A stretch of 16,978 nucleotides of DNA, from the UHGV virus genome UHGV-0207004. One strand, written 5' to 3'. Source of the stretch: a virus. Positions 766 through 16,978 of the stretch are shown here, piece by piece. The translations under genes were made by a program, and so were the position numbers. The notes under the pieces were generated by a model. The model was not told the DNA's origin, did not search any database, and saw only the letters and a list, made by a program, of their open reading frames with translations. Within the stretch, counting starts at the first letter, position 1. Every line of letters begins with the position of its first letter.

Positions 766-771
766 CAAAAA

Positions 772-800
772 GGGGGCCATTACGGCCCCCGAATTATTTT
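772..800. terminator. bidirectional rho-independent terminator shared by the convergent genes
   Basis: GGGGGCC (772-778) / GGCCCCC (784-790) perfect 7-bp stem with 5-nt loop; A-run 766-771 gives a T-run for the minus-strand transcript, and ATTATTTT 793-800 follows on the plus strand. Confidence 0.6.
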
Positions 801-1221: not shown

Positions 1222-2317
1222 GCCATAACCCCCGGTTTTTAAGCTGTGCAATAGTCATTAGTTCGCCTGTGTCGGTGAACATCTTCGGCACTTTCACGCC
1301 GCGCATAATCTGGTCCGCGCGCTGCACCCCGTATAATTCCTCCAGAATATGGCGCGGCTGGCGCTGCACCCATGAGAAGAAATCAGTCTGCGCGTCGACT
1401 TGCTCACTCAGCAATCGACCCGCGTCAGCCTTCAGTGCCGGACGCTTACCACTGGGCCAATCTTCCATACCTTTGACTTTCCACGTCTCAGTCGAACGGC
1501 AGCAATAATGCAGCTTGCCCGGGCCAGCGCCATACTGCGATCCAGCCACCACTTTTCCGCCGCGCTTCCCTTTGGTGTCGGGAGTGACGTCAACAGGATA
1601 AAACAGGCGATCGCGTAGCTGGCACATAGGGGAGGTATGAGTGTCCAATGTAGCCAACCATTGGCGACCTTCGAGAATATCGTCATTTGCTTTCACCATT
1701 AATTCGCGGGCGGTCGCCGCATAGTGGTTGACTGCGGACTTAACCACGCTTGAGATGGCCTGCGCACTACGACCGCCGAGCGCGCGCCTTACGTCCGCAA
1801 TTATTTCCATAGTCGGCTTGCCCTGGATGAAGCCCGCGCGCACCTGATTGCCGATCTGCGTCCTGGCCCACTCAGAGAGTGAGTCAGGCCACTGCATCAT
1901 CGTATTACCCTGGAACGGGTTTTTCATAGCCGTCGCTGCAATCTGCGCACCGGAAACAACGCCCACTACCTCGACAGCAGGCACGGCGACCGCTGGCTGG
2001 ATCGCTGCCGTTAGGGTATCGACAAGATAATCGGCCTCCGAGTCGGCAAACTCCTGAAGGCTTTCCGCCAGCGCCTTAAACTCGGTGCGCAGTTCCGTCT
2101 TAACGGTCCTGTCGAGTTGCGCCAACAGCGTGGTAAGCGCCTTGTTATTCATGGCCTTTTTGCCATCAAGTAACTCGGTCAGCTTCCCCAGTAAAGTGGG
2201 CCGGAACTTCTCCCACATAGTCAGCACCCTTCGCGCCTGGTCATTGCTCAGGCGCTGGGTGAAAATGTGACGGCGGATCATGCGATCCGCCAGATGTTGA
2301 TTAATCGTTCTCGCCAT
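1214..2317 (-). CDS. head morphogenesis / minor capsid protein, Mu F-like (SPP1 gp7 family)
   Basis: 367 aa; ATG 2317-2315; motif TLDTHTSPMCQLRDRLF resembles the conserved core of the Mu F-like domain; sits directly after the portal gene as in many siphoviruses. Confidence 0.7.
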   Translation of the reverse strand: MARTINQHLADRMIRRHIFTQRLSNDQARRVLTMWEKFRPTLLGKLTELLDGKKAMNNKALTTLLAQLDRTVKTELRTEFKALAESLQEFADSEADYLVDTLTAAIQPAVAVPAVEVVGVVSGAQIAATAMKNPFQGNTMMQWPDSLSEWARTQIGNQVRAGFIQGKPTMEIIADVRRALGGRSAQAISSVVKSAVNHYAATARELMVKANDDILEGRQWLATLDTHTSPMCQLRDRLFYPVDVTPDTKGKRGGKVVAGSQYGAGPGKLHYCCRSTETWKVKGMEDWPSGKRPALKADAGRLLSEQVDAQTDFFSWVQRQPRHILEELYGVQRADQIMRGVKVPKMFTDTGELMTIAQLKNRGLWRD

Positions 2318-3821: not shown

Positions 3822-3831
3822 GTTCGTTTCC

Positions 3832-5217
3832 TTAGTAGAAGTCTACAGTTGGAACAACGGCGATTGGACGAATCACTGGGAACAGGTGCGCAATTGGATA
3901 GCCCGCGGCATCGTTCATGTGGTCCACCCCAGCGGTTTTATCCGGCTCGCCTTTCTTCAGGTCGTAAACCTGCTGTTCCAGGCATTTCGCTAGTGTAGGG
4001 CATTTATCCAGGTTGACAAAATACTGGCGCACGCCCTTAGCGTTGCACATCATCGTATTCATCGCGATCAATCTGTCTTTCACCGGTGGGTTGACGCTGT
4101 CGTATTCCACCTCGAAGCCCGCGTCTTCCAGTTGCGCGATATCCGACGACGATGCGTTTACGGTCTTACGAGACTTGCCACTGCTGTCCGGGTAAACGAC
4201 AACACGACCGGCAGCGCAATGATCGGGGTAGCGCTCCTCGATCGCCTCAATCATAGCCGGGGTATCAAACAAGTCCACAAATTCATCCACTGCGTGAATC
4301 TCGTCGCGGAACTCCTTATTCTCGGTAGTGCGCTGCCGTCTGACGTACACAACCGCCGCCATTTTCGTGACGTTAAAGTCCATTCCGATAATCAGCGTGT
4401 CATCCGGCTGCACTTCCTCGGTGCTGGCGTTCTCCTCACGGTTAAACATCTTGTAGACTGCGCCAGACGTGAGGTTTACAAACAAGCCGTTAAGATATGC
4501 GTCAATCAGGTTTGCAGGGTACTGGCTTCGCAGCGTGTCGATAAAGTCTGCCGGTAAGTGGTGGTTGTCGGTGGTCTTCGCCCGGATCAACCGTTTTTGG
4601 TTATCCTTCTCCACTTCGAAAATCTGATACATTGCCCGGAAGCCTTCCGGCGTGGACACGATGACAAACTGGCGCACCAGGCCCGCACGCAGACGACCGA
4701 GCAATTTGTGATACGCCGCCATTGCAACGTCTTGCTTCGTGGTGTCGAACTCATCGGCAACAATCCACGCGGCGTTAACACCGATAAGACGCGTGTAGTT
4801 CTCCATTGACTCGCAGATTACGCGGGTCCATTTGCCTTTCACCAGCACGCTATAGATCTTGTCCTGCTTGTTGAACTTCCACCGGAAGCCTGCCTCGTCG
4901 AAAGCCTTCTCCAGCTCCGGGTACATGATTTTCACCAGGAGTGGGATAGTCGGCTCGGTCACAATGCCGTCATGACCTGGGTTCAGTGTCAGAAGCTGGA
5001 TGACCTTACGCGCCGCGACCCATGACTTGCCGCCGCCGAAGCCGGAACACAGGCCGAGGATTTTGGTCTTTGTGTCGCGCAGTAGTTCTACCTGGTGCGG
5101 AAGGCAATCAGGTTGATACAGGCGGACGGCCTGGGCAACGCGCGTTGGGCGCGGTGGTCGGTTGCGCTTTGCAATCGCGCGTTCAAGTGCGCGGTTTTCT
5201 GCCGCATAGTTACGCAT
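3832..5217 (-). CDS. terminase large subunit
   Basis: 461 aa; ATG 5217-5215 overlapping the TerS stop (TAATG); Walker A-like GLCSGFGGGKS, Walker B-like WIVADEFD, C-terminal nuclease-like region (IIGMDFN...); position upstream of portal. Confidence 0.8.
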   Translation of the reverse strand: MRNYAAENRALERAIAKRNRPPRPTRVAQAVRLYQPDCLPHQVELLRDTKTKILGLCSGFGGGKSWVAARKVIQLLTLNPGHDGIVTEPTIPLLVKIMYPELEKAFDEAGFRWKFNKQDKIYSVLVKGKWTRVICESMENYTRLIGVNAAWIVADEFDTTKQDVAMAAYHKLLGRLRAGLVRQFVIVSTPEGFRAMYQIFEVEKDNQKRLIRAKTTDNHHLPADFIDTLRSQYPANLIDAYLNGLFVNLTSGAVYKMFNREENASTEEVQPDDTLIIGMDFNVTKMAAVVYVRRQRTTENKEFRDEIHAVDEFVDLFDTPAMIEAIEERYPDHCAAGRVVVYPDSSGKSRKTVNASSSDIAQLEDAGFEVEYDSVNPPVKDRLIAMNTMMCNAKGVRQYFVNLDKCPTLAKCLEQQVYDLKKGEPDKTAGVDHMNDAAGYPIAHLFPVIRPIAVVPTVDFY

Positions 5218-5768
5218 TACTCACCCTGGCCTTTGCCGATAGGTTCGACAACAACGTCGCCGTTATCATCTTCGTCATCATCCAGCGGAGCATCGTCGCG
5301 GACGCCGTGATTGGCTTTAAGCAGGAACGCAGCGAAGCCCGCCGCGATGGTGATGCCGCCCGCTTCCATCAGGAAAGTTTTCTGCAGCTCCATTGCGTCA
5401 GCCATCGCCTCGGCGAACTCCTCATGTGCGCGCGCCCAGCGGTACAGGCAGGCAATGCCTACACCAATATCCGCAGCAAAGCGACCGAGAGTCGGCATCT
5501 TATGGCGGGGGATGACTTGCGCAGCGCCCTTGTCGGAGTAGTTGATCTGCCAGGCTACGGCATCGGCAAAATAGCGGCGAAGCTGGTCGCAATACACAGT
5601 GCGGTAGTCGGTCGGGCGTCCACATTTGCCGCCTTTACGACGCTTGCCGTATTCGATCTCAGGTCCAAGATTGGTATGTTCGGTTTGCTCGCCTGGTTTA
5701 CGGCGCGGGGTGACTGCCACTCGACCGTCCAGTTTGGCGCGACGGCCCTTAACTCTGATTTCTGCCAT
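5217..5768 (-). CDS. terminase small subunit (183 aa)
   Basis: Track ORF (start 5867) trimmed to ATG 5768-5766, which has an AAGGG SD; basic N-terminus, HTH-like segment (TLGRFAADIGVGIACLYRWARAHEEF), acidic C-terminal tail; stop overlaps the TerL start. Confidence 0.55.
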   Translation of the reverse strand: MAEIRVKGRRAKLDGRVAVTPRRKPGEQTEHTNLGPEIEYGKRRKGGKCGRPTDYRTVYCDQLRRYFADAVAWQINYSDKGAAQVIPRHKMPTLGRFAADIGVGIACLYRWARAHEEFAEAMADAMELQKTFLMEAGGITIAAGFAAFLLKANHGVRDDAPLDDDEDDNGDVVVEPIGKGQGE

Positions 5769-5838
5769 GATATAAGCCCTTTTATGCATATGCGCCGACC
5801 ATCGGCAACATAGGAGACGGCCCTGCCATCTAAGGTGG

Positions 5839-5867
5839 ATTATAACAGGCACAAAAAAGCCCACCAA
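5839..5867 (-). promoter_or_regulatory. candidate sigma70-type promoter for the packaging operon (extended -10)
   Basis: Minus-strand reading: TTGGTG (5867-5862), 17-bp spacer, TGT-TATAAT (-10 at 5844-5839); overlaps the preceding terminator hairpin. Confidence 0.3.
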
Positions 5868-5878
5868 ATCGGCGGGCT
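5851..5878 (-). terminator. rho-independent terminator ending the phosphoesterase module
   Basis: On the minus strand: AGCCCGCC / GGTGGGCT stem (one G-U pair), 5-nt loop, followed by TTTTTTG (complement of 5851-5857); immediately downstream of the stop at 5886. Confidence 0.5.
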
Positions 5879-5885
5879 GGGAGGC

Positions 5886-6098
5886 TTAAACGGCGCGACC
5901 GTAGTATCGGGTTAACATGCTTTCAACTTCGCTTATGGCACCCTCTGTGTAGCGTATTTGAGATAGTATCTCGATCCGCTCACTGATAGACATGCCTATT
6001 GCCGCTGCCGTTCGTTCGAATCGGCGCAAGCCTTCTAGTTGTTTGCGTAGCTCTTTCAGGCGGGTGGCCTGCGTGCTCATGAATACTTGTCTAATCAT
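5886..6098 (-). CDS. hypothetical 70-aa helical protein, translationally coupled to the phosphoesterase gene
   Basis: ATG 6098-6096 overlaps the upstream TGA (ATGA); predicted helical, charged; followed by a terminator. Confidence 0.5.
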   Translation of the reverse strand: MIRQVFMSTQATRLKELRKQLEGLRRFERTAAAIGMSISERIEILSQIRYTEGAISEVESMLTRYYGRAV

Positions 6099-7237
6099 CT
6101 CAACATCTCCGGGCTAATGGTTAGGCGCGCCACTTCGCCGTAGTTGGCGCTATAGGTGATGACGTTAGCACTGCGTCCGGACATCCAACCGCCGCGGCTT
6201 GCGTATGCGTCTTTCGCGGCGAGCGTCCGGTGCTGCTCAACAATCATGTTACGGGATTCTACAATCTTCTGGTGGTGCAAGTGACCAACATGCGCGTAAC
6301 TGTACTCGCTCTCGCCAAATGCTTTCCTGAACTTAGAAATCATTACCGACTCGATGGCGTCAAAGCGTGCTTTGTGACCGTGGTGGAAAAACAGCGTGGT
6401 CTTACCGTGCTGCACCATCTTGTATACGTCCGGTGACGTGTCAACATCGACGCGCGGCTCGTTCTCGTACAGGGTGTTGAACATCTCCGCCAGCCAAATC
6501 ATACCAGACTCGTCATGATTGCCCTGGACGATTAGCAGTTTTACTTTGTGGTGCTTTCGCAGCGCCAGGTCTACTACGTTGCGCACCATGCGAATCATGT
6601 AGCGGACCAACTTCTGGTATCGGGTATCCGCGTCCAGGATATGACCACTGGCTGGAGTGACTGCGTCAAGGCTGTCAAAGTGCGCCATATCGCCGAGGAT
6701 ATTGATGACGGCAGTTCCTGCGTCTGGTGCGCGGGCGAAGGCTTCGACAAACCAGCGGTAAAACAGATCTTCGGCGATTGCCATATCCCAGTCCTCGCCA
6801 GTCTCCTCGCCCCATGCCAGCATTCCCAAGTGGAAGTCTGACACTGTGTACAGGTTGAGTAGGTCAAGTGCCTGGATCGGGACGGGCGGGGCGCTAACTG
6901 GTGCTGCCGGTGTGATTTCGCTGTTCATACCCTCGACAACAGCGAGCATTGCTTCGAGTTGGCGCTCCTTGTCCTGCTCGGTGATAACCCATGACATGAC
7001 CTCTTCGCCATTGCCACGCACCAGGGCGGATACACGCTTGACGCCGAATCCATCGGCAACGCGCTTACGGATCACAGCATCGTTGCCGTGCCCAATGCCT
7101 TTCTTCGACAGCCTGGCTTTGCGCATATAGACATTTCGAAGAGCAATGCCATATTTCTTCGCAATCTCTTTCGATGTAGTGCCAGCTTGCAATTCAGCGA
7201 TCAATTGCTCGTCGGTGATTTTAGTTTGCGGATGCAT
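6095..7237 (-). CDS. N-terminal HTH domain fused to a calcineurin-like metallophosphoesterase (380 aa)
   Basis: ATG 7237-7235. N-terminal HTH-like segment (TSKEIAKKYGIALRNVYMRKARL). Metallophosphoesterase motif set seen in the translation: SDFHLG (D-x-H), ILGDMAHFD (GD), QGNHDE (GNHD/E), HHGH, GHLHH (GH-x-H). Confidence 0.75.
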   Translation of the reverse strand: MHPQTKITDEQLIAELQAGTTSKEIAKKYGIALRNVYMRKARLSKKGIGHGNDAVIRKRVADGFGVKRVSALVRGNGEEVMSWVITEQDKERQLEAMLAVVEGMNSEITPAAPVSAPPVPIQALDLLNLYTVSDFHLGMLAWGEETGEDWDMAIAEDLFYRWFVEAFARAPDAGTAVINILGDMAHFDSLDAVTPASGHILDADTRYQKLVRYMIRMVRNVVDLALRKHHKVKLLIVQGNHDESGMIWLAEMFNTLYENEPRVDVDTSPDVYKMVQHGKTTLFFHHGHKARFDAIESVMISKFRKAFGESEYSYAHVGHLHHQKIVESRNMIVEQHRTLAAKDAYASRGGWMSGRSANVITYSANYGEVARLTISPEMLR

Positions 7238-7286
7238 ATTAATTTAATTCCTGATTGAGAGGACCTAGGACAATATACCACGGTCG

Positions 7287-7367
7287 CTATAGTAATTCGC
7301 AAATAACCATACCGACGAATGCGGCGGCGGACCAGATCGCTAATACCCAAATATCATTGCGTGCCAT
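7287..7367 (-). CDS. putative 26-aa hydrophobic micro-protein (MARNDIWVLAIWSAAAFVGMVICELL)
   Basis: ATG 7367-7365 preceded by GGAAGGAG at ~9 nt; single predicted TM helix; sits between the TTGGTTGCA promoter region and the phosphoesterase gene; below the ORF-track size cut-off, so hand-translated. Confidence 0.25.
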   Translation of the reverse strand: MARNDIWVLAIWSAAAFVGMVICELL

Positions 7368-7390
7368 AGTGTGTTACTCCTTCCCGTTGA

Positions 7391-7428
7391 TTGGTTGCAG
7401 TATGGCCTCTATGTTGGTTGCAAGTCAA
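7391..7428 (-). promoter_or_regulatory. promoter/operator region with two TTGGTTGCA 9-mers
   Basis: Perfect TTGGTTGCA at 7391-7399 and 7414-7422; on the minus strand TTGACT (-35, complement of 7423-7428) and a weak CATACT -10 at 18-bp spacing; directly after a terminator and before the micro-ORF and phosphoesterase gene. Confidence 0.4.
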
Positions 7429-7430
7429 GC

Positions 7431-7457
7431 AATAAAAAGCCCGGATAATTCCGGGCT
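7431..7457 (-). terminator. rho-independent terminator ending the lysis unit
   Basis: AGCCCGGA (7438-7445) / TCCGGGCT (7450-7457) 8-bp stem, 4-nt loop; on the minus strand followed by TTTTATT (complement of 7431-7437); 7 nt after the stop at 7464. Confidence 0.6.
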
Positions 7458-7463
7458 TCATGT

Positions 7464-7634
7464 TTACGCCTCCGGTTCTGCCGGTGGTTCCGGTGCCGCT
7501 GGTTCTGGCAGCTTCGCATCAAAAACACCAGCATGACTGATAGTGTCGGCGATAATGGCGCGTGCGCCAGGGTCTTCGGTTTTAGCCAGCGCGGCGAGCG
7601 CGTCGGCGTTATGATCAAGAATGCTTTTTAACAT
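7464..7634 (-). CDS. small protein with Pro-Glu-rich C-terminal tail (56 aa)
   Basis: Track ORF trimmed to ATG 7634-7632, preceded by GAGGAG at 7 nt; sequence MLKSILDHNADALAALAKTEDPGARAIIADTISHAGVFDAKLPEPAAPEPPAEPEA; no TM segment or lipobox, so not a spanin. Confidence 0.5.
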   Translation of the reverse strand: MLKSILDHNADALAALAKTEDPGARAIIADTISHAGVFDAKLPEPAAPEPPAEPEA

Positions 7635-7650
7635 ACTGTGTCTCCTCGTA

Positions 7651-8142
7651 TTACACTGCGTTACGTCCGATTTTCTCGGCAACGTCCCACTGCTTACCAT
7701 CGAATAGTGCCTGCCGACCGATTGCACGGCGGACAAGCCCCTTGAGCACTACCCCACCCTGCTTGCGGAATTGCGGCAGTGTAGCACGTACCTTCGCCCA
7801 GTCACCCAGGCGGACCGCATCATCGAAGTCACCGGCAATGTTGTCCGGCGTGATCGGGCCAGGACCGGTATTGATAACCAGATCCACCAGCGCGTCGAAT
7901 TGCGCCTGATTAATGCTCGGGTGTGCGTACTTGTTCACACAACTTTCGGCATACTCCACATCTCGCTTGAGTAGCTCCAGCGCTTCCGCACGGGTAATGC
8001 TCCGCGGCGGATTTGTGCCGGTGTGTCCATAGCCCCAGGTGTACAGGCCGCGGGCCTGCTCTTTCTTAGTCGCGAAATACGGCACTGGGCTGAATTGCTC
8101 CCATGCTGCCGTGAATCTTAGACCGTTGTCACTGAATCGCAT
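7651..8142 (-). CDS. endolysin, GH24 (T4/P22-lysozyme-like) muramidase
   Basis: 163 aa; ATG 8142-8140 with GGGG SD; from memory of P22 gp19-type lysozymes the translation shares SxNG...GxGHTG...NQxQFDAL...FNxG-type blocks; position after holin-like genes. Confidence 0.8.
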   Translation of the reverse strand: MRFSDNGLRFTAAWEQFSPVPYFATKKEQARGLYTWGYGHTGTNPPRSITRAEALELLKRDVEYAESCVNKYAHPSINQAQFDALVDLVINTGPGPITPDNIAGDFDDAVRLGDWAKVRATLPQFRKQGGVVLKGLVRRAIGRQALFDGKQWDVAEKIGRNAV

Positions 8143-8374
8143 GTTTTACCCCATTCAAAACAGCATTACGCAGTGTGCGCAATGCAAACAGCCAGATTAA
8201 CGCGGTCCAGGTGGCGTCAGATACGTCTCCCGTTTGCAACAGACCGACAATACAGGTCATTGCCGTTAGCAGATACAACACCCGACCGAAGAAGCCATCC
8301 TGAACGGATGGCGCGTACACGTTAAACAGGGACGATGCCCCGATAATCACAAACAACAGGACGGTGATAATCAT
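8129..8374 (-). CDS. holin/antiholin-like small membrane protein (81 aa)
   Basis: Track ORF (171 aa) trimmed to ATG 8374-8372, which overlaps the upstream TGA (ATGA) and has a GGGGGG SD; three hydrophobic segments; 3-prime end overlaps the endolysin start. Confidence 0.5.
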   Translation of the reverse strand: MIITVLLFVIIGASSLFNVYAPSVQDGFFGRVLYLLTAMTCIVGLLQTGDVSDATWTALIWLFALRTLRNAVLNGVKHAIQ

Positions 8375-8661
8375 TTTGCGCCCCCCGGAAGGCGGAACGA
8401 CGCAATCGTCTCCCTGATCCGGGCGGCGATTGGCATCCAGAAGATGGCTGTTACGAAGCCCAATCCGGCGACAGTTCGCTCGCCAGATAGGCCAGCCCAC
8501 TCGGCAATCGCTGGCGCACCGAAAATGGCACACAAGAAGCCGACCACGATGTATAACACGAAGTTTAATGGCCCTTTCGTGGCCTCGCCATGAATGCGAG
8601 CGCCAACGAATCCGCCTGCAAGGCACGCTAGGGCGAATAACCATTCGTTCAGCTTTTCCAT
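8371..8661 (-). CDS. holin-like membrane protein (96 aa, three predicted TM segments)
   Basis: ATG 8661-8659; hydrophobic segments WLFALACLAGGFVGARI, FVLYIVVGFLCAIFGAPAIA, GLGFVTAIFWMPIAA; charged C-terminus; first gene of the holin-holin-endolysin block. Confidence 0.55.
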   Translation of the reverse strand: MEKLNEWLFALACLAGGFVGARIHGEATKGPLNFVLYIVVGFLCAIFGAPAIAEWAGLSGERTVAGLGFVTAIFWMPIAARIRETIASFRLPGGAK

Positions 8662-8695
8662 AAAAAAGTCCCAGTAAGTTTTAGCTCACTGGGAC
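8662..8695 (-). terminator. hairpin plus T6 immediately abutting the holin start codon (tR-prime-like terminator or translational control element)
   Basis: GTCCCAGT (8668-8675) / ACTGGGAC (8688-8695) perfect 8-bp stem, 12-nt loop; on the minus strand followed by TTTTTT (complement of 8662-8667) and then directly ATG 8661. Confidence 0.5.
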
Positions 8696-8713
8696 TATAT
8701 CACGCTTGCATAG

Positions 8714-9001
8714 TTAATCGAAAATGGACCACTTACCGACGCCTTTCCATTCCCACCCTTCCGATCGGACGGCCTCGAACATACGGCCCCCGATCATATC
8801 CCGATACCACAGCCACCACATGCGCAGCTTGGTTGGGTGTTCGGTAATGCCGCGGCGCTTGTATATCTGGAACGTCATCCGGGTAATGCTGGCAGCTTCC
8901 ACGGCAGGCCATACCAGGAATACCCAAATAACTAACAACACTGCCGCGATAAGGCATAGTCCGCAGGCCAGCCCAAACCAATATATCATTTCGTGTAACA
9001 T
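8714..9001 (-). CDS. small membrane protein (95 aa), function unknown
   Basis: ATG 9001-8999 with AAGGGG SD at 8 nt; N-terminal TM helix, Trp-rich C-terminal half; caveat: two other frames are also open here, so coding status is uncertain. Confidence 0.4.
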   Translation of the reverse strand: MLHEMIYWFGLACGLCLIAAVLLVIWVFLVWPAVEAASITRMTFQIYKRRGITEHPTKLRMWWLWYRDMIGGRMFEAVRSEGWEWKGVGKWSIFD

Positions 9002-9122
9002 CGTATTGCCCCTTCTGGTTGTCCGATGTGGCGCGCCCAGGCACGCGCCACGAAGTAATTGCGGAACACTCGCCCGCCTATCTCAAAGCGGTTGTGCATG
9101 AGTATATCGCGGATGGTCGCAC

Positions 9123-9695
9123 TCATTTCAGAATCACCGAGCGCGGGTCGATGACGGTCATGTTGCCGTCCGGTTCGACACGGATGAATCCAACGCCATA
9201 CTCTTTAGCGTGGCGCTGTGCATTCGTCACGGCGTCAAAGCGATTGATGATTTCACGCGTTGCCTGGCGGATCGGCTCCATCACTTTGCTCGCGTCGTAG
9301 GCTGCATAGGCGGTCTGTGACTTGCGGAACTCAACGCGCTCATGTGGCTGGCGGATGCGCAGGCAGTATTTACGCCCCACTCGCTCGTAGTTGACCAGCC
9401 CGAAGTAAGCCACGCTCTTAACCATGTTGCCGGTACCGCCCTCCTTGCGGGTCTGCATACGAATGCAATAAAAACCAACATTCTCCACAATCCACAGCTG
9501 CCCGTCGCGAATATCCCGCAGCACATCGCCGCGCTCAATATCGTGGGTGAGTACGTCGAAGTTTTCCGACAGCTTGTCTTTCTTCGCCCACCACACCCGA
9601 CTACCTGCCGCGTTTTGCAAGCGGACGTAGGAATCCAGGGTCTGGATCGGCTTCAGGATGCATCCATCCCATTTACGGCGGAATAGTAATTTCAT
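9123..9695 (-). CDS. hypothetical protein (190 aa)
   Basis: ATG 9695-9693 overlapping the upstream TGA (ATGA); no motif recognised; last gene before the late leader and holin genes. Confidence 0.55.
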   Translation of the reverse strand: MKLLFRRKWDGCILKPIQTLDSYVRLQNAAGSRVWWAKKDKLSENFDVLTHDIERGDVLRDIRDGQLWIVENVGFYCIRMQTRKEGGTGNMVKSVAYFGLVNYERVGRKYCLRIRQPHERVEFRKSQTAYAAYDASKVMEPIRQATREIINRFDAVTNAQRHAKEYGVGFIRVEPDGNMTVIDPRSVILK

Positions 9696-9961
9696 TTGCT
9701 CAGTCTCCAGTGTTTGCCTGCCCGCTCAATGGCAGGCTTTCGGCGTAATGTAATACGGATCCCCATTGGTTGCAAGGAAGTCCGCACCCTGAAATCATGT
9801 TGTGCTGCGAACTGGTGCAGGTAGCGAGTCTGCGTAAGTGGCTTCGCATCATCGCGATAGCTCCAGTACACAGAATCGCCCTCAATCGCATTCTGCGCCC
9901 ATATTCGTATGCAATGCAGGGGAATGCCCCATGAAAGCTGTTTAGCTCGCCTCCGGCTCAT
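9692..9961 (-). CDS. hypothetical basic protein (89 aa)
   Basis: ATG 9961-9959 with AAGGGG SD; Arg/Trp-rich; translationally coupled to the downstream gene; contains an internal TTGGTTGCA at 9766-9774. Confidence 0.45.
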   Translation of the reverse strand: MSRRRAKQLSWGIPLHCIRIWAQNAIEGDSVYWSYRDDAKPLTQTRYLHQFAAQHDFRVRTSLQPMGIRITLRRKPAIERAGKHWRLSK

Positions 9962-9970
9962 TTTGGCCCC

Positions 9971-10276
9971 TTATTTCGCAAGCTGGGCGAATAGTTCGCG
10001 CTGGGCTTTAATCCGGGCGACGTTTGTCACTGCCGTCTCCCCGATCCCGAAGCGATAAGCCAGGCGCTCACGGGAGAATGCCATCGCATATTCGCAGATT
10101 GCCACGCGCAGCGGCTCCAGTTCGTCCAGGCTGGCAAACATATCGTCGAACGCGTTCATGATCGCCTGCTGGGTCAGGATGACTACCTCGCGCGCTTCGT
10201 CTGCGTTGCCGTTTAGTGCCTTCGCTTCGTCCAGCTTTGCCACGGCCAGGGTGTAATTCCAGATTAGTGCTTTCAT
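9971..10276 (-). CDS. hypothetical protein with C-terminal HTH-like segment (101 aa); candidate small regulator
   Basis: ATG 10276-10274 overlapping the upstream TGA; C-terminal RLAYRFGIGETAVTNVARIKAQRE resembles a helix-turn-helix. Confidence 0.5.
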   Translation of the reverse strand: MKALIWNYTLAVAKLDEAKALNGNADEAREVVILTQQAIMNAFDDMFASLDELEPLRVAICEYAMAFSRERLAYRFGIGETAVTNVARIKAQRELFAQLAK

Positions 10277-10470
10277 CGTTCAGTCCTCTTCGTGATGGTT
10301 ACGCTATCCAGGAATTGCAGCAAGGCCTCTTGCGCCTTTACACGCAATCCGGCGTAGTGGCGCGATTTCTTAATGTCGCCGACCATGTACGCTGCGCGTG
10401 CTTGCAAATCAGCTTTGTTCTCGGCCTCAATCAGTTCCAGCAGTTCGTCTACCAGGTCTTCGTGGTCCAT
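10273..10470 (-). CDS. hypothetical acidic helical protein (65 aa)
   Basis: ATG 10470-10468 with GAGGA SD at ~10 nt; first gene downstream of the promoter and repeat region. Confidence 0.5.
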   Translation of the reverse strand: MDHEDLVDELLELIEAENKADLQARAAYMVGDIKKSRHYAGLRVKAQEALLQFLDSVTITKRTER

Positions 10471-10485
10471 TGTTCAATCCTCATG

Positions 10486-10531
10486 TTGGTGTGCAACCAA
10501 TATATCAGTGTGCCCGGCCGGATGCAACCAA
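10486..10531 (-). promoter_or_regulatory. sigma70-like promoter overlapped by two TTGGTTGCA sites
   Basis: Minus-strand reading: -35 TTGCAT (complement of 10522-10527), 17-bp spacer, -10 TATATT (complement of 10499-10504); 9-mer copies at 10523-10531 and 10492-10500 (complement); the 21-mer TATATTGGTTGCACACCAACA is shared with 16579-16599. Confidence 0.45.
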
Positions 10532-10680
10532 TATTAATCACGCGCATGAAAAAGTTGATCGCTATCTGCTGCAACTGCAAACTGCATTTTTCACTCTCCA
10601 TTCTGCAACTCGCATTGGTTGCCGAGTTCATCGACGACCGCAATTTGCATCATGTTGCCGTGGATTATGCAATCCTGGAT

Positions 10681-11000
10681 TTTATGCAGTCTCAGACGAG
10701 GGGGGTGCCAGACCCCCCGTCTAGTCTGAAAGACTGGGGTGCTGTCCCGCTGTCCCGATCGGCTAAAACCCGCGGCAGCACTGGCGGGGACGGGGTGCTG
10801 TCCCGCTTTGTCCCGCCTCAATTTTGTCCCGCTTTTGTCCCGTTTGTTTTATGCATGAAAACTGAATAGGTATGCACTTTTCAGAGGGGTGCCAGATCGG
10901 GACGTCCCGCCTGTCCCGCTTTTAGTTTATGCAATAAAAGTAAATAGGTATGCAGTTTTTGAGGGGCGGGACAAAACGGGACGTCCCGCTTGTCCCGCTT
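10681..11000. repeat. ORF-free iteron array: three imperfect ~75-bp tandem modules carrying GTCCCGC heptamers (~10 direct, 3-4 inverted copies)
   Basis: GTCCCG(C) at 10744, 10752, 10800, 10810, 10826, 10837, 10904, 10913, 10983, 10992 (pairs 8-11 bp apart); inverted CGGGAC at 10898, 10967, 10977; modules start TTTATGCA at 10681, 10849, 10926 and share GAGGGG(TGCCAGA) and AATAGGTATGCA blocks; no ORF of 60 aa or more on either strand. Confidence 0.7.
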
Positions 11001-11002
11001 CA

Positions 11003-11679
11003 TTATGCGGGGTTTTGTTGCGCCATTTCATCGAGCGCGATTCGTTCCATTAGCTTGATATCTTTAAACGCGCGCTGCTCGTTTTCGATACCGTGCATCT
11101 TAAATAACCATTCCAGCACGCCATAGTCGATGCCGTATGCGCCACCGAATCCGGTGCGCCATTGCGTAGAGCAATCTGTGAAGACTGCGACTACCTTCGC
11201 GTTGTCGGGCCATAGCGCAACAGGCGGGCAAACGTCTTCAGGTGCCGCGCCCCATAAACTCGCGGCTAAGTCCTCTGATGGTGGCGGCGGACCGTAAAAT
11301 CGCCTCGCCGCCTCAATTAGTTTTTTTCACGCAGTCCCATCAGTTCGAGATAGTACGAGGTGTGGAACACGCCAAACGCGCGCGGATAGTTTACCACCAG
11401 GCGGCGAACGTTCTCCGCGTTAAATTCGTCCGGCAGGTTCCAGCCTTCAGCGACGTGCATGATGGCCTCAACCATAACGTTAAAGCCATCCGGGTCGTTG
11501 TCGTCATATTCTGATAGCTTGCGTTCCGTTTCCTGCATGGTCTGCGAAAATTCGTCAATCGGGCGGTGGCGGACGGTAAACGTCATCTTGCCTGGTTCGT
11601 TCTCACCAGGGCGCGGGATCTCAATCGGCAGCTTAAAGGTCGGCTTAGGGTCAAGTGTGAAGAGTGGTGCTTTAGCCAT
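11003..11679 (-). CDS. tail assembly chaperone GT fusion (predicted -1 programmed frameshift product)
   Basis: Slippery run GAAAAAAAC (complement of 11320-11328) at the last codons of G; the -1 frame has a stop 2 codons upstream of the slip site, then stays open for ~105 codons to TAA 11005-11003 with no plausible start codon or SD of its own. Confidence 0.45.
11317..11679 (-). CDS. tail assembly chaperone G (120 aa)
   Basis: Track ORF (TTG 11694) trimmed to ATG 11679-11677 with GGAG SD; small acidic protein directly downstream of the major tail protein gene and ending in a slippery A-run. Confidence 0.55.
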   Translation of the reverse strand: MAKAPLFTLDPKPTFKLPIEIPRPGENEPGKMTFTVRHRPIDEFSQTMQETERKLSEYDDNDPDGFNVMVEAIMHVAEGWNLPDEFNAENVRRLVVNYPRAFGVFHTSYYLELMGLREKN

Positions 11680-11692
11680 TGTAATATTCTCC

Positions 11693-11718
11693 AATAAAAA
11701 AGGGGCCGTGCTGGCCCC
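11693..11718 (-). terminator. rho-independent terminator after the major tail protein gene
   Basis: GGGGCC (11702-11707) / GGCCCC (11713-11718) stem, 5-nt loop; on the minus strand followed by TTTTTTATT (complement of 11693-11701). Confidence 0.6.
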
Positions 11719-11748
11719 ATATTATCACTCGCTATTTAAGCGACCAAA

Positions 11749-12474
11749 TCAGGCGAGTGCCTCGACCAGGTCCTTACGGTAGATGACCATATCAGACTGC
11801 ATGGTCAGAGTGGATTGTACCGTTTCCACGTTGTTTACTTCAGCGGACGGAATCTTCTGGAAAGATACCTTAGCCGGGTAAATACGAATTTCACCTTTGC
11901 CGCTTGCTGCCGCTGGGTTAGTGAACTTAATCACAGTGGTTTTCTGTGTGTCGTCCAGGTCTTCCAGGATTGGGCGGATCGGGTCTTCTTCGTCGTGGGT
12001 GAAGGTGTAAGTCTGGACCAACGGGTTTTTCGTGGTGTTCAGACTGATCGCGGTGTTCACCTGCAACGGCTGGAAGGTAGTCGTCTGCTGGTCACCACCA
12101 GAAACAGCAACGTTAGTGATAAACGGGAAGTCGATAAAGTTAGCCACCTTAACCACTTCGCCAGGTGTACCCGCTGCAAAAGCCCCCGCCGGATATTTGG
12201 TCACATCCGAGGTGTCGAAGCGCGCGAGCGTGACGTCGTTGGTAGCCACTTTACCCACGATGAACGCGCGGTTCTGCGCGCGGACCCACGGAGATTTAGT
12301 GAACATTACCACGTCGCCAACTTTCAGACCGTGAGACGCCGCGCAGGTGATTACGCAACCAGTGGTAAGGTTGGAGATCGACGCGGTGGCGTTGGAAGCT
12401 GCCGTAACAGCGATGCCGCTGCCCAGTACGGACCCAATCTGGACGCTGGACCCGTTAGGAAGTTGATAACCCAT
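11749..12474 (-). CDS. major tail (tube) protein
   Basis: 241 aa; ATG 12474-12472 with AGGAG SD; Gly/Ser/Thr/Val-rich beta-type composition; followed by a terminator and a chaperone gene with a frameshift, the canonical siphovirus arrangement. Confidence 0.55.
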   Translation of the reverse strand: MGYQLPNGSSVQIGSVLGSGIAVTAASNATASISNLTTGCVITCAASHGLKVGDVVMFTKSPWVRAQNRAFIVGKVATNDVTLARFDTSDVTKYPAGAFAAGTPGEVVKVANFIDFPFITNVAVSGGDQQTTTFQPLQVNTAISLNTTKNPLVQTYTFTHDEEDPIRPILEDLDDTQKTTVIKFTNPAAASGKGEIRIYPAKVSFQKIPSAEVNNVETVQSTLTMQSDMVIYRKDLVEALA

Positions 12475-12534
12475 AATGAAGCTCCTGTTTAGATATACGG
12501 ATTAATGATACAGCACGCGCAGAATTGCGCCAAA

Positions 12535-12957
12535 TCAGGCGCAACAGCTATACATGATTGATACCACGATGCGGGCGCGGTCAACATCCTCGACCACAGA
12601 ACTGGTATATGGCGCGTCCTGAAGCTGGAAAGCCGCGCCATCGATCTTGACGCCATGCCATTTGTCAGACGTCGCGATGGCGTCCGCCAGTTCGCTCGCG
12701 TACTGTGTGCCCGTGCCCGCAGGGAACACAACGGCAACCTGGTAAACGCCTGCATAGATCCGGCCTTTCTGCTGAAGGCCAGCAAACTGGGTCGGGGCCG
12801 GTAGCAGGTACGGCTCCAGGTAGACGCCATTACCGTTTGCGTGGTCGCCCTTCACGTTCTCCCAGTTAACCTGGATCGGACGCTGGTTAGTGCTCAGGCT
12901 AACCGCCAATTCTTCTACTACGCTGTTAAGCGCCTTGCGGATTAGAGTATTGCTCAT
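12535..12957 (-). CDS. head-tail joining / tail terminator-like protein (140 aa)
   Basis: ATG 12957-12955 overlapping the upstream stop; call is from position between head-tail connector genes and the major tail protein only. Confidence 0.4.
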   Translation of the reverse strand: MSNTLIRKALNSVVEELAVSLSTNQRPIQVNWENVKGDHANGNGVYLEPYLLPAPTQFAGLQQKGRIYAGVYQVAVVFPAGTGTQYASELADAIATSDKWHGVKIDGAAFQLQDAPYTSSVVEDVDRARIVVSIMYSCCA

Positions 12958-13550
12958 TATTTCACCTTAGAATTGATTTCTGCCGCCACAACGCGAACAA
13001 TCCCCGCTGGCGCTTGTTTACTCCAGCCATACTCCAGTCGCTGCGCATACGGCACATTATTAGTAAACCAGATCGATCCGTATTCGCCAGAATCGTAATG
13101 CGCCAGCACGTCACGCCCTGCGGCTAATGTTGCCGTTCCAGCCTTGTCCACTCTGTCGATAGCGCCGACAGCCGGACGGTCGAAAGTCACCTGCCAGTTT
13201 CCCCGGAAGCGTCCGCCGGTGTAATTCTTCGCGGCCCAGCCACGCTGGCGAAATGTGACGTTGCCGTCTTTAGTCTTAAACGAGACGAGCACACTTGCGT
13301 GTTTCTTCTGCCCGCGCTTCAGTTTGCCGCCATTCTTGCGGCGCTGTGCGGCGTTCACCTTGTTCGCGTGCTGGCGGGCCATCGCGAACGCCCTGTTAAT
13401 CTTCCACCGGCGGGGGTCGCCCACCGGGGAAATCTCAATCAGGCGTCCGAGTATTTGCATACCGGTCGCCCGCACCGCCTTGTCGTTATTCTCCTTCGTC
13501 TTTTCCACCCAGGTGGCGATGGTGGCGGCGAACGAGTAGACCTCAGCCAC
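12957..13550 (-). CDS. head-tail connector family protein (197 aa), possibly HK97 gp10-like
   Basis: GTG 13550-13548 with AAGGGG SD at ~5 nt; synteny between capsid and tail genes; family assignment is from recollection, not a search. Confidence 0.4.
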   Translation of the reverse strand: MAEVYSFAATIATWVEKTKENNDKAVRATGMQILGRLIEISPVGDPRRWKINRAFAMARQHANKVNAAQRRKNGGKLKRGQKKHASVLVSFKTKDGNVTFRQRGWAAKNYTGGRFRGNWQVTFDRPAVGAIDRVDKAGTATLAAGRDVLAHYDSGEYGSIWFTNNVPYAQRLEYGWSKQAPAGIVRVVAAEINSKVK

Positions 13551-13551
13551 A

Positions 13552-13905
13552 TTAGCCCCTTAGCTGTAATTGAAACAGCATGGTAGTTCCCGCCGGTTGC
13601 AGTGGATTTGGATTGATAACACGGTAGTCCGTGCTATTCAGGTTGACCAGATCGCCTACCTGCACTTGCTCCGATGCCTGGCATAAGAACTTAACGTCAC
13701 CGGCAATGATACGAGTCCCGTCGATCTCGCTGGGCTTGTACTCCTCGCGAAGACCGATGACATCAAACGACGTTGGCGGGATAACCACTTCTTCGCCGCC
13801 TACGCGGTCAACAGACCCCGGACGCGTCACCTTAACGGTCATGCCGTATTTTTTAATCAGCGGATTTACTTTCCGCTTCAAGCCTGCGTAGTTAAAGCCC
13901 GCCAT
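13552..13905 (-). CDS. head closure / head-tail adaptor-like protein (117 aa)
   Basis: Track start GTG 13914 abuts the SD; ATG 13905-13903 has GGAGGG at ~9 nt and is preferred; synteny. Confidence 0.45.
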   Translation of the reverse strand: MAGFNYAGLKRKVNPLIKKYGMTVKVTRPGSVDRVGGEEVVIPPTSFDVIGLREEYKPSEIDGTRIIAGDVKFLCQASEQVQVGDLVNLNSTDYRVINPNPLQPAGTTMLFQLQLRG

Positions 13906-13906
13906 T

Positions 13907-14002
13907 TTATTCACCCTCCGGCGCTGGTTCTGGTTCTGGTTCTGGTTCTGGTGGCTGTTTGGTATTTGCGGCGATAACAGCCGCGAGTAATGCAGGATTC
14001 AT
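13907..14002 (-). CDS. 31-aa mini-protein with (Pro-Glu)4 repeat (MNPALLAAVIAANTKQPPEPEPEPEPAPEGE)
   Basis: ATG 14002-14000 one nt after the upstream TAA, AGGGG SD at ~5 nt; stop TAA 13909-13907 one nt before the next ATG; fills an otherwise unexplained 97-nt gap; resembles the C-terminus of the 56-aa protein at 7464-7634. Confidence 0.3.
   Translation of the reverse strand: MNPALLAAVIAANTKQPPEPEPEPEPAPEGE
13925..13953. repeat. hexanucleotide tandem repeat (TGGTTC) x4 plus a partial copy
   Basis: TGGTTC at 13925, 13931, 13937, 13943, then TGGTG; encodes the PEPEPEPE stretch on the minus strand. Confidence 0.85.
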
Positions 14003-14003
14003 A

Positions 14004-14504
14004 TTAGCCCCTGTACACGTCAAAGTTACCGGCGGCGTTGCCGTCTGTGTTCACCCAGTAGCCCAGCAGGCCATCCCACCACGGGAAAGACACACCACTA
14101 CCAATCGACGCAGCGTCATACTCCATCGTGATCGGGCCTACCGTTTCGCGGATAGTCTCCTTTCCATCGCCGATCGGAGAAATATCAACATCGTCAGCCA
14201 CCAGCATTGCCAGCCGGTAAACGGCTTGTTCAACGGCAACGGGGATTGATGCGAAGTCTACAATCTGCCCAGCAGGTACTACTGCCAAATCTTCGGTAAG
14301 CGTGTTCAGTACCGGCTTACCGTCTGATGGGTAGTTGATGCGGGGCCATGCGTCAATTCCGGTCGGGTCCGCCGGTTCGCCGATCCAGGCGATGCCGTTG
14401 AGGAAATCATTAACTATGGTAAGGTGTCGCGTTGCATCGCCCTGCGTAATTTCAACGCCTCGCGCCGCGGCATAAACAACGAAGGTTTGCGGGTCGCCAT
14501 ACAT
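14004..14504 (-). CDS. head-tail connector / head completion candidate (166 aa)
   Basis: ATG 14504-14502 with AGGAG SD at 8 nt; first gene after the capsid terminator; synteny only. Confidence 0.45.
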   Translation of the reverse strand: MYGDPQTFVVYAAARGVEITQGDATRHLTIVNDFLNGIAWIGEPADPTGIDAWPRINYPSDGKPVLNTLTEDLAVVPAGQIVDFASIPVAVEQAVYRLAMLVADDVDISPIGDGKETIRETVGPITMEYDAASIGSGVSFPWWDGLLGYWVNTDGNAAGNFDVYRG

Positions 14505-14517
14505 TTTATTTGCTCCT

Positions 14518-14543
14518 ATAAAAAAGGCGGGCTTATGCCCGCC
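14518..14543 (-). terminator. rho-independent terminator after the major capsid gene
   Basis: GGCGGGC (14526-14532) / GCCCGCC (14537-14543) 7-bp stem, 4-nt loop; on the minus strand followed by TTTTTT (complement of 14520-14525). Confidence 0.6.
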
Positions 14544-14562
14544 CCTTTGGGATTTGCGCCGA

Positions 14563-15663
14563 TCAGGACGCTGTGGTCGCAGTCAGCGTAACCAGTACGC
14601 CAGCCGTTTCCTTGATGTTACGGGTCGGCACTTCCTGCGCGGCCTGGGTCTTACGACGGCCTTTAGTATCGCCATCACCCACCGCGCCAACATCCTGAAC
14701 GGTTGCCGGTGCGTTGTCTACTTGGCCCTGGTCCAGTTCCCAGTTTGCGGAAGTGGTAATATCGCTCAGTTTGAACGAGCGTACACCTTCGATCGGGGTG
14801 CGAGCGGACGCCTTCAGACGGTAGCCTTTAACAGCCACGTTGAAGTCGAACTCACCCTGCCACCAGCGTTCGATGTTCTCGTTACCGCCTTTTTCCTGCG
14901 CCAGCATATCAAGGCCGTTGGTGGTAACTGCAACCGCGCCAGGGACCAGACCCAGCATTTTACCCGCGCCCATAGCATCGGCAGCGGCATCGGAGATAAT
15001 GAAACGACGACCCAGGCCGTCACCCATTACCTGCAGATCGCCGATCGCAAATACCTGCTCGGCAGACGGGAGCGCCTGGTACGCAATGAAGTTTGCCCAG
15101 GTAACGCCGTCCATAAACCAGGATTTAATCAAAGACGCCTGATCGCCGAACTTAGAAGCCGCCAGCGGGAAGTCTGCCAGGGTCGGGAAGGTACGACCGC
15201 CAACACCGTCAACACGCGCCGGTTGGGTGTATGCTGCCGCTGGGTTGCTCTCGATCGCCGCTTTACTTGCGCCGATACCGGCCTTCAGGTAATGCAGCAT
15301 AATCGCTTGAGTAGCCTGTGCCGCAATCTCAGCCGCAACGCTGTTAACGTTGGTTTCGATCTTAGCCATCATAGCCTTAGTGATTGCCACCGGACCCACT
15401 TTCGCGGAGAGGTTGACCGAGTTGGTCAGCATACGCGCCAGCACTTTAGCGGTCGCCGGAGTACCGACAGGGGCATATGCGTTACGGTCAGTAACGAGGT
15501 TGGCGATCAAGCCTACGGACATTTTTTCTACAACGTCCTTCAGCACTTCACCTGTACCGAGAACAACAGCGCCGTTCGCGGCAGCGTTGAACACGTTCAG
15601 GTTGTCGGGGATCATTTGCGTAACCGCGGTAACGAGTTTACGCTGGAACACTGTTAAAGACAT
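14563..15663 (-). CDS. major capsid protein
   Basis: 366 aa; ATG 15663-15661 with AAGGA SD; immediately downstream of the scaffold gene and followed by a strong terminator; Ala/Gly/Val-rich; call from size, position and expression signals. Confidence 0.7.
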   Translation of the reverse strand: MSLTVFQRKLVTAVTQMIPDNLNVFNAAANGAVVLGTGEVLKDVVEKMSVGLIANLVTDRNAYAPVGTPATAKVLARMLTNSVNLSAKVGPVAITKAMMAKIETNVNSVAAEIAAQATQAIMLHYLKAGIGASKAAIESNPAAAYTQPARVDGVGGRTFPTLADFPLAASKFGDQASLIKSWFMDGVTWANFIAYQALPSAEQVFAIGDLQVMGDGLGRRFIISDAAADAMGAGKMLGLVPGAVAVTTNGLDMLAQEKGGNENIERWWQGEFDFNVAVKGYRLKASARTPIEGVRSFKLSDITTSANWELDQGQVDNAPATVQDVGAVGDGDTKGRRKTQAAQEVPTRNIKETAGVLVTLTATTAS

Positions 15664-15730
15664 ATCGAAATCCTTTGAGTTGTGAGCATTCGCCCAGTGA
15701 CGTTAATGTTACCTTAGATTTACGCGCTCG

Positions 15731-15756
15731 CAAAATCGCCCGCTTTCGCGGGCGAT
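15731..15756 (-). terminator. attenuator-like hairpin between scaffold and capsid genes
   Basis: ATCGCCCGC (15735-15743) / GCGGGCGAT (15748-15756) perfect 9-bp stem, 4-nt loop; on the minus strand followed by only TTTTG (complement of 15731-15734). Confidence 0.35.
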
Positions 15757-15760
15757 CTGC

Positions 15761-16465
15761 TTACTCGTCGTCGCCCATTTTAGCGATGATTTCACCGGCC
15801 TGTTTTGTCAGGTCTGTAATACCAAAGCTATGGCCCATCGAGATTTTCGGCTTCGCATCTTCAATAACCTGTGTCGGTTTGCTCGGAGCGCCACCTGCTG
15901 GCGTGCCTGCTAGTACGGATGCAAAATCGGCGTTACTACGGAACTCTTTTTCAAGCTCTTCCATAGTAAGGGCGGACGGTTTGCCATCCTTCAACACCCG
16001 CAATTTCAAGCTGCCGTCTTCGCCGTCTTCCAGCGCGAGTCGGTCCATTACGTGGCGTTGCATGATGCCCGCATTCTTACCGAACAGCTTCGACGCCAGG
16101 TCTTTGGCAGCGCTGCCGATGGTTAGATCGTGGATCTGCTTGCGGTAGGCTTCGATTTTACCCGATGTGTCTGCTTCGTGTTTTGCAAACTTATCCTTCC
16201 AGGATTTATCGATCGCTTCGAGGTCGCCATTTTTGCGCGCGGCGGCTTCCTCTTTCTCTTTCGCAAGGCGCTCGGCTTCGGCGCGGCGTTCGGCTTCTGC
16301 TTTCTTCTCGCTCACCAGCTTTGCGTTGTTGTCTTTCAGACCCTTGATTTCCGCCTGCACTTCGTCAGCGGTCATAAATGTTGACTTATACCCGTCGCCA
16401 TCGGCAACAAAAAGCGCCTTCATACCTTCTGGCAACGCGTCGTATTCTGCTTTGGTAAGTTTCAT
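15761..16465 (-). CDS. scaffolding protein (234 aa)
   Basis: Track ORF (start 16699) trimmed to ATG 16465-16463 with AGGGGGA SD; Lys/Glu/Ala-rich coiled-coil-like central region (KKAEAERRAEAERLAKEKEEAAARK); directly upstream of the capsid gene. Confidence 0.6.
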   Translation of the reverse strand: MKLTKAEYDALPEGMKALFVADGDGYKSTFMTADEVQAEIKGLKDNNAKLVSEKKAEAERRAEAERLAKEKEEAAARKNGDLEAIDKSWKDKFAKHEADTSGKIEAYRKQIHDLTIGSAAKDLASKLFGKNAGIMQRHVMDRLALEDGEDGSLKLRVLKDGKPSALTMEELEKEFRSNADFASVLAGTPAGGAPSKPTQVIEDAKPKISMGHSFGITDLTKQAGEIIAKMGDDE

Positions 16466-16555
16466 GCTATCCCCCTGGGATTGTGGCAGAGCGGGCCACC
16501 CGCTCGACTTCACGCCTCTAATATTATCAGCGATAAAAATAATCGCAAAATTCGC

Positions 16556-16599
16556 TTGCAATCCTGGTGTTGGTTGCATATATTGGTTGCACACCAACA
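16556..16599 (+). promoter_or_regulatory. plus-strand sigma70-like promoter overlapped by two TTGGTTGCA sites, in a divergent intergenic region
   Basis: -35 TTGCAA (16556-16561), 17-bp spacer, -10 TATATT (16579-16584); 9-mer copies at 16570-16578 and 16583-16591; the 21-mer 16579-16599 is the reverse complement of 10484-10504; a GAGCGGG/CCCGCTC hairpin at 16489-16505 lies in the scaffold gene leader. Confidence 0.45.
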
Positions 16600-16619
16600 G
16601 AGATATGAAGGAAAACAAG

Positions 16620-16934
16620 ATGACTAACATGACCGTAGCAACTCCAGTAGACGTAGCAATGACCCGTTTCAATAAAGCTACCGTAGCTAAAACCTTCACC
16701 TTTCATGCTATGCGTAACGCCGAAGCGCTGAATCTGTGCCAGAGCATGAATGCTACTGAAGCAGCGAAGGCCGCAATCAATTCCGCATCCTTCGATAACC
16801 CGGCTTGCGGTCTGGTTCCGGCATCTTTCATCAAATCCCTGGTAGAAGCCTTTAACGATTTCATGTGCGTCGATGCCGTTGAAGCCGTATGCGCTCGCTT
16901 AACTTCCACCGGTGGCAACATCAAGTTTAACTAA
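16620..16934 (+). CDS. hypothetical protein (104 aa), divergent from the structural operon
   Basis: ATG 16620 with AAGGA SD at 7 nt (in-frame ATG 16605 lacks an SD); ends TAA 16932-16934; followed by a GGGGC-GAAA-GCCCC hairpin near the window edge. Confidence 0.5.
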   Translation: MTNMTVATPVDVAMTRFNKATVAKTFTFHAMRNAEALNLCQSMNATEAAKAAINSASFDNPACGLVPASFIKSLVEAFNDFMCVDAVEAVCARLTSTGGNIKFN

Positions 16935-16978
16935 ACTAAACCAAACGGGGCGAAAGCCCCAACCACGAGGACACAAAA

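Follow-up and report, generated by a model that had tools for sequence, protein, structure and literature searches.

A 17-kb circular virome genome whose tail module ends after G/GT is probably a falsely closed arc of a normal Dhillonvirus genome

The virus genome UHGV-0207004 was analysed as one stretch of 16,978 bp (hereafter the window). In the ORF listing of these 16,978 bp, nearly all genes are carried on the minus strand, and the largest ORF encodes the 506-aa portal protein. Along the direction of transcription, the genes encoding the scaffold, the major capsid protein, the connector proteins, the tail terminator (a phrog_179 match in the PHROG comparison), the tail tube and the tail assembly chaperone G follow one another. 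The tail tube gene (11749..12474, minus strand; 241 aa) was identified by its match to Pfam PF08813 Phage_tail_3 (8.3e-33); it lies immediately upstream of G and is syntenic with the gene for the major tail protein of the phages PaulFeyerabend and rolling. The ORF listing of the window contained no tape-measure, tail-tip or fibre gene, the tape measure of relatives being ~880 aa long. The observation of the initial annotation that the tail module stops after G/GT therefore holds for the window, which has no ORF above 506 aa and no tape measure.

The 120-aa G protein (11317..11679, minus strand) matched Pfam Phage_TAC_4 over residues 1-120 (4.8e-23). The exact G protein occurs on many Dhillonvirus contigs. 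A slippery heptamer, A AAA AAC (11320..11326, minus strand), lies at the end of G in the X XXY YYZ phase, its first base being codon position 3 of the G frame. A predicted -1 shift would lead into the T extension (11003..11326, minus strand) and yield a GT product of 225 aa that ends at the stop codon 11005-11003. Pfam assigned DUF1799 to residues 143-219, on the T extension (1.3e-20). The heptamer, the 225-aa fusion and the two domain matches bear out both the earlier G/GT call and the end of GT at 11003. These results indicate that the G/GT pair of the window is real, with -1 frameshifting as a prediction.

Downstream of GT lies a non-coding, repeat-rich stretch (10471-11002). Its existence had been claimed before, and the CGGGAC array, the 78-79-bp units and the hairpin found within it agree with that claim; 13 of the 15 CGGGAC sites of the window fall within 10744-10997. 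We refer to the repeat element in this stretch as R. The left part of R (10758..11002) contains CGGGAC/GTCCCG arrays, two 78-79-bp units and the palindromes CGGGACGTCCCG. It is followed by a 71-nt block (10687..10757) that includes a 50-nt hairpin (10687-10736; -28.4 kcal/mol, z = -2.6), and then by a right flank (10471..10686) with two TGCAACCAATAT repeats. An Rfam search of 10300-11800 returned nothing significant. As to the promoter proposed after GT, a promoter-like TTGCAT-17-TATATT is present in the right flank (10527-10499, minus strand) as a candidate from sequence alone; the consensus promoter scan did not flag it.

Past R, in the direction of transcription, four small genes encode products of 65, 101, 89 and 190 aa. 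None of the four had a Pfam match and their PHROG matches were only of unknown function, so the earlier label of regulators was not upheld. The first of these ORFs (10273..10470, minus strand; 65 aa), which the Pfam and PHROG comparison placed in no family, is not in PaulFeyerabend and was found in reads of the same virome (SRR7892431). The small genes are followed by those for a holin, an endolysin, a 380-aa metallophosphatase-like protein, the terminase, the portal and a 367-aa protein that is a head morphogenesis or minor capsid protein by the annotation of relatives. The map of the window thus contains the odd module order pointed out in the initial annotation, with the scaffold-to-GT unit upstream of the lysis and packaging genes. 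No integrase, att site, replication initiator or primase was seen among the profiled ORFs or by synteny with annotated relatives.

By megablast, the window was placed in the genus Dhillonvirus, the HK578-like siphoviruses of E. coli with genomes of 43-47 kb. Its nucleotide identity to complete phages was 89-95% over 11-16 kb with synteny kept, the comparison set being PaulFeyerabend (MZ501097), rolling (MN850575), KarlBarth (MZ501088) and 44-kb metagenome contigs. Three segments of the window were mapped onto PaulFeyerabend: 1-5768 corresponds to 5768-1, 5769-10855 to 44550-39587, and 10682-16599 to 11713-5783. Window positions 10682-10855 align twice and in the same orientation, to 11540-11713 (copy A) and to 39587-39760 (copy B). 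PaulFeyerabend 11714-39586 has no counterpart in the window. According to the PaulFeyerabend annotation, these missing ~28 kb contain the tape measure, four minor tail proteins, a J-like tip, a lateral fibre and the entire replication module. By this mapping, the whole window (1..16978) is a circularly permuted arc, termed S1, with a single R copy; S1 holds late genes of unknown function and the lysis, terminase, portal, head, connector, tube and G/GT genes. In the comparison of synteny with relatives, which the initial annotation had proposed as a check, the window is a permuted Dhillonvirus genome without ~28 kb.

The two ends of the window are contiguous. Logan contig SRR7892431_4225, from a human-virome run, runs unbroken from 16978 into 1 and is 100% identical to the window except for one variable patch. 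Two further Logan contigs of SRR7892431 match window 4649-7725 and 7757-10413 at 100% identity. None of the Logan contigs of this run covers the junction in R (window 10414-12409).

Complete Dhillonviruses, including Sodalis phage SO-1 (GQ502199), share with the window the gene order, G/GT and the repeat-rich spacer. They differ in what follows: region A leads to the tape measure, the tail tip, the fibres and the replication module and then to region B, whereas the window, at 16,978 bp, jumps from A to B and misses ~28 kb. In all complete relatives examined, the tape measure comes after region A, and in every complete Dhillonvirus examined the tail-tip genes come after the tape measure. Relatives 94-96% identical to the window have the same hairpin, then AATAAGGTTTG and the sequence that follows it, and then a tape-measure gene of 873-883 aa. 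Whether a tape measure is contiguous with GT in the real genome had been named as a check on the truncation. The outcome goes against a biological truncation, since a gene of 873-883 aa follows the spacer in all complete relatives; this contiguity was judged in relatives, including contigs 94-96% identical, not in the same strain. Among the readings offered in the initial annotation, the one that placed the remaining tail genes elsewhere comes nearest. They would lie in the lost 28-kb arc and not, as it had supposed, beyond the edges of the window, because the ends join.

Complete Dhillonviruses contain two direct copies of R: one, copy A, separates G/GT from the tape-measure gene, and the other, copy B, separates the primase/helicase gene from the late genes. 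In the three complete genomes scanned, CGGGAC arrays are confined to sites A and B, with 7 CGGGAC sites at B and 12-14 at A, some of them spaced by 9-12 bp; a long conserved hairpin, variable in its loop, closes each array. The GenBank record of SO-1 annotates a 'region A' and a 'region B' and notes their mutual similarity, and papers citing SO-1 contained no discussion of these regions. After R at site A comes an extended -10-like TGATACAAT, directly ahead of the start of the tape-measure gene; after R at site B comes TTGCAT-17-TATATT. The R hairpin has no canonical U tract and is therefore not a standard intrinsic terminator. Taken together, these features suggest that R may be a protein-bound boundary cassette at which one operon ends and transcription restarts, and that the copy at site A might divide the tail operon, with GT on one side and the tape measure on the other.

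We further examined where the window departs from its relatives. Among the 159 phage records matching across window 9000-13000, colinearity is broken at 10682 in 158, and the other side of this break matches site B in 97 records. The left part of R, up to 10757, is of A type: 10758-11002 aligns to the A copies of complete genomes and not to the left flank of B. To the right of 10687, the window is of B type, and its right flank (10471..10686) has a form seen at site B alone, ahead of the late genes. The switch, and with it the zone of closure or crossover, thus falls in the 71-nt block. The window shares this block without a mismatch with the A copy of contig L018 (44.7 kb) and the B copy of contig L039 (44.2 kb), and from these two different relatives the parent of the window would be expected to carry an exact repeat of 71 nt. 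In three GenBank genomes, the longest exact match between A and B is 27-52 nt. In L039, the centre of the B copy is A-like, which indicates that A and B copies exchange sequence in nature.

The single record colinear across 9000-13000 (1/159) is Escherichia phage JLBYU27 (OK272475.1), 16,547 bp long and deposited as a complete genome. Like the window, it carries an R that is A on the left and B on the right, and no other public record is colinear over the junction. This record, too, is circularly permuted, and the gene boundary at which it is cut differs from that of the window: its two ends meet where the major capsid gene starts, at the start codon. JLBYU27 was plaque-isolated on E. coli, yet its record has no tail-tip, receptor-binding or replication genes. 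A literature search on JLBYU27 found no paper. Its identity to the window was 89.3%, compared with 89.6-95.0% for complete phages. The window is thus no closer to JLBYU27 than to complete phages, indicating that the two closures arose separately and that there is no mini-genome lineage. An 8-nt microhomology crossover common to the window and JLBYU27, which would have favoured common descent, was considered and dropped, because the A copies of closer relatives already have the B-like CGGGACAGCGGGACAGCACCCC.

Most probably, the window is a falsely closed arc, that is, an assembly or circularisation artefact of a normal Dhillonvirus genome of ~45 kb, and we infer that this closure is computational, not physical. 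The S1 arc (~16.9 kb) would have been joined to itself through R. If the left half of A is fused with the right half of B, the 28-kb S2 arc drops out, with the tape measure, the tail tip, the fibres and all replication genes, and the scaffold-to-GT unit comes to lie immediately before the lysis and packaging genes. Where the exact A/B block is longer than the k of the assembler, both termini of S1 would end in R and form a direct terminal repeat. A circularity caller would then presumably trim off this repeat, treat the contig as a circle and set its start at an ORF boundary. A procedure in which terminal direct repeats lead to circularisation, and the start is moved until the wrap point cuts no ORF, is used in at least one virus pipeline (10.1101/2020.09.15.298943). 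As for the window, it begins exactly with the ATG of a gene and carries no terminal repeat.

The data from other assemblies and from a simulation were consistent with this explanation. Breaks at R recur in public short-read assemblies: S1-type contigs of 16.1-16.9 kb were obtained from at least 6 samples, and the one examined end to end has both termini inside R. Logan contigs, built at k=31, end exactly 30 nt (k-1) into the 71-nt block. The complementary half was also found, as a 27,250-nt contig of S2 type that begins within the hairpin, just ahead of the tape measure; two more contigs begin 95-168 nt upstream of the tape-measure gene. The simulation used a pseudo-parent containing two copies of the 71-nt block, from which unitigs were built at k=31, 55 and 77. 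At k=55, the S1 unitig had a direct terminal repeat of 32 nt; at k=31, there was no terminal repeat, and at k=77 the repeat was resolved. The S2 partner arc was sought in SRR7892431 via tape-measure homologues, and the contigs found came from other samples. Further points count against an artefact: A/B matches of 27-52 nt can be resolved by many assemblers; the sample is one of virus particles, in which a real encapsidated deletion product would have an identical sequence; and the natural exchange of sequence between A and B makes recombination possible.

The leading alternative is a physical product of homologous recombination between R copies A and B, either a sub-genomic 17-kb circle or a deleted genome. 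We consider it unlikely. In its favour, the junction lies in a direct repeat with a 71-nt block that one A copy and one B copy from relatives share exactly, gene conversion is seen between A and B copies, and Dhillonviruses are annotated with a PD-(D/E)XK nuclease and a Gam-like inhibitor, which are recombination functions. Moreover, the same closure is present in two independent sequences, the window and JLBYU27, and the sample was particle-enriched. A circle with the head, packaging, lysis and tube genes could be replicated in trans by a helper and packaged as multimers in the manner of a defective-interfering or mini-phage, and, being abundant enough in the virome, it would assemble alone; this form of the alternative is improbable to the same degree. 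On the other side, the arc has no replication genes, and the simulation gives the same topology by assembly alone. The cos decamer reported for phage EE09 (PMC10673088) does not place the packaging site: it is not in the window, and it is absent from three complete genomes too.

Searches for the junction elsewhere also argue against a physical circle. The hybrid junction pattern had 0 matches in IMG/VR, in which 11 normal A junctions were found, all on contigs of 42.5-45.2 kb. The JGI/ENA metagenome collection likewise yielded no contig with this junction, the sole match to the hybrid pattern there being a normal B copy with an A-like centre on a 44-kb contig. An exact-sequence look-up among 15 billion proteins had no junction-spanning ORF on record. 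As for the reciprocal S2 circle, a synthetic query covered no record across the join in the phage collection. A more far-reaching proposal, that the 17-kb circle is physical, repeatedly thrown off by recombination between the two R copies and both replicated and encapsidated by complete Dhillonviruses, is doubtful at best. If true, such a circle would explain both the presence of the window in virome particles and that of JLBYU27 in a phage lysate, and R would be a recombination hot spot doubling as a regulatory cassette.

The junction could instead have arisen in the library, by a template switch that joined the R copies during whole-genome amplification and was then assembled faithfully. Amplification is, as a general statement, frequent for viromes and favours circular templates (10.1101/2020.09.15.298943), and the repeat at the junction contains a strong hairpin. 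Any one chimera of this kind is rare, however, and seldom dominates an assembly, and JLBYU27, which comes from an isolate, has the same closure, making this origin very improbable. Least credible of all is the satellite-like element or defective prophage of the initial annotation, which would make capsid and tail tube itself and take the tape measure, tail tip and fibres from a helper: although a set of capsid, packaging, connector, tube, chaperone and lysis genes without a tail tip superficially resembles the capsid-forming satellites, the window was matched by none of 5,426 complete E. coli genomes and 72,556 plasmids, lacks an integrase, att site and replication initiator or primase among the examined ORFs, is 89-95% identical in nucleotide sequence to complete lytic phages along its whole length, does not form a lineage with JLBYU27, and has its boundary exactly at an assembly-breaking repeat.

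With the falsely closed arc as the preferred reading, the truncation is most likely true of the window and not of the phage, which almost certainly has a normal tail module. The biological weight of this finding is small, and its value lies in quality control. Dhillonvirus assemblies recurrently fall into the same two halves at a conserved dispersed repeat, and either half can pass as a 'complete circular genome'. JLBYU27 (16.5 kb) is labelled complete in GenBank, and the window seems to be a second such case, from a human virome. Such halves will go on being picked up by scans in which a 'circular contig with incomplete gene set' is taken as the mark of a satellite or mini-phage. The genuine oddity is the repeat cassette between GT and the tape measure in Dhillonviruses, whose regions A and B had already been annotated in SO-1.

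Compared with known systems, the G/GT pair of the window resembles that of lambda in its TAC domain, in the in-phase heptamer at the end of G, in the conserved T extension (DUF1799) and in its place right after the tube gene. In lambda, the tape-measure gene directly follows T. In contrast to lambda, Dhillonviruses have a repeat-rich spacer of ~370-700 bp (region A) between GT and the tape measure, and the window has the tube gene adjoining G/GT and no tape-measure gene. PICI and cf-PICI satellites are similar to the window in having head and packaging genes without tail-tip and fibre genes. Unlike PICI, cf-PICI and P4-like satellites, the window has no chromosomal residence, integrase or replication gene of its own that could be seen, and its sequence is not distinct from that of complete phages. 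The deletion derivatives known as defective-interfering or mini-phages likewise have end points in direct repeats, which an artefact also predicts. False 'circular complete' viral contigs offer the remaining parallel: there, a repeat-bounded contig gains identical ends and is closed by terminal-repeat tools. Such contigs are usually discussed for tandem or low-complexity repeats. The window differs from these usual false circles in that its repeat is conserved and dispersed, so that the same two halves recur across many samples.

Among the records related to the window, JLBYU27 (OK272475.1) is deposited in GenBank as a 16,547-bp 'complete genome'. It comprises the same sub-genomic arc as the window, closed through the repeat and opened at the capsid start codon. 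The record is without tape measure, tail tip, fibre and replication genes, and is therefore probably an incomplete assembly.

Two small accessory segments of the window (10273-10470 and 16600-16978) are missing from the Dhillonvirus PaulFeyerabend (MZ501097). The first is a 65-aa ORF with no family assignment and lies directly after the junction, the place within the repeat where one genomic context passes to the other. The second is a 379-bp insert carrying a 104-aa ORF on the plus strand (16620-16934); at the same site several metagenome contigs have a 104-aa ORF and phage Bas85 has one of comparable size (330 bp). Variation was also found within the 254-aa gene (1-765, plus strand), for which precomputed Pfam matches to Nmad5 are available. 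Compared with a human-virome Logan contig of run SRR7892431 that is otherwise identical to it, the window shows 38 differences, all of them clustered in a 250-bp patch of this gene (318-566). Local divergence there is about 15%, and the patch has the appearance of either strain polymorphism or recombination.

The i-spanin and o-spanin annotations of PaulFeyerabend follow the gene for the minor capsid (head morphogenesis) protein. Judged by this position, the corresponding window ORFs (about 780-1251, minus strand) and the genes for holin and endolysin (7651-8661) are separated by about 6.5 kb, in which the packaging genes lie. The gene for a 380-aa metallophosphatase-like protein (6095-7237, minus strand) has the lysis genes on one side and the gene for the small terminase subunit on the other; its product matches phrog_704 ('DNA repair exonuclease') and, weakly, Pfam Metallophos. 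Since one UniRef entry names a homologue an HTH LuxR-type protein, a role in DNA binding is conceivable for the 380-aa protein.

The tail assembly chaperone G (11317-11679) matched PHROG 569 at 1.2e-40, a family labelled 'tail length tape measure protein'. The 363-bp G gene of Bas85 carries a tape measure annotation, which probably stems from this label.

The window has a cassette of a CGGGAC array plus a hairpin at 10687-11002, and Dhillonviruses keep this cassette in two copies, located at 11400-11713 and 39587-39760 in PaulFeyerabend and at 11214-11597 and 40178-40657 in Sodalis phage SO-1 (GQ502199). One of them, copy A, separates GT from the tape-measure gene, where a non-coding spacer, here about 370-700 bp long, is unusual. 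The copies swap sequence, as the B copy, between primase/helicase and late genes, has an A-like centre in metagenome contig ERZ1034962 NODE_129.
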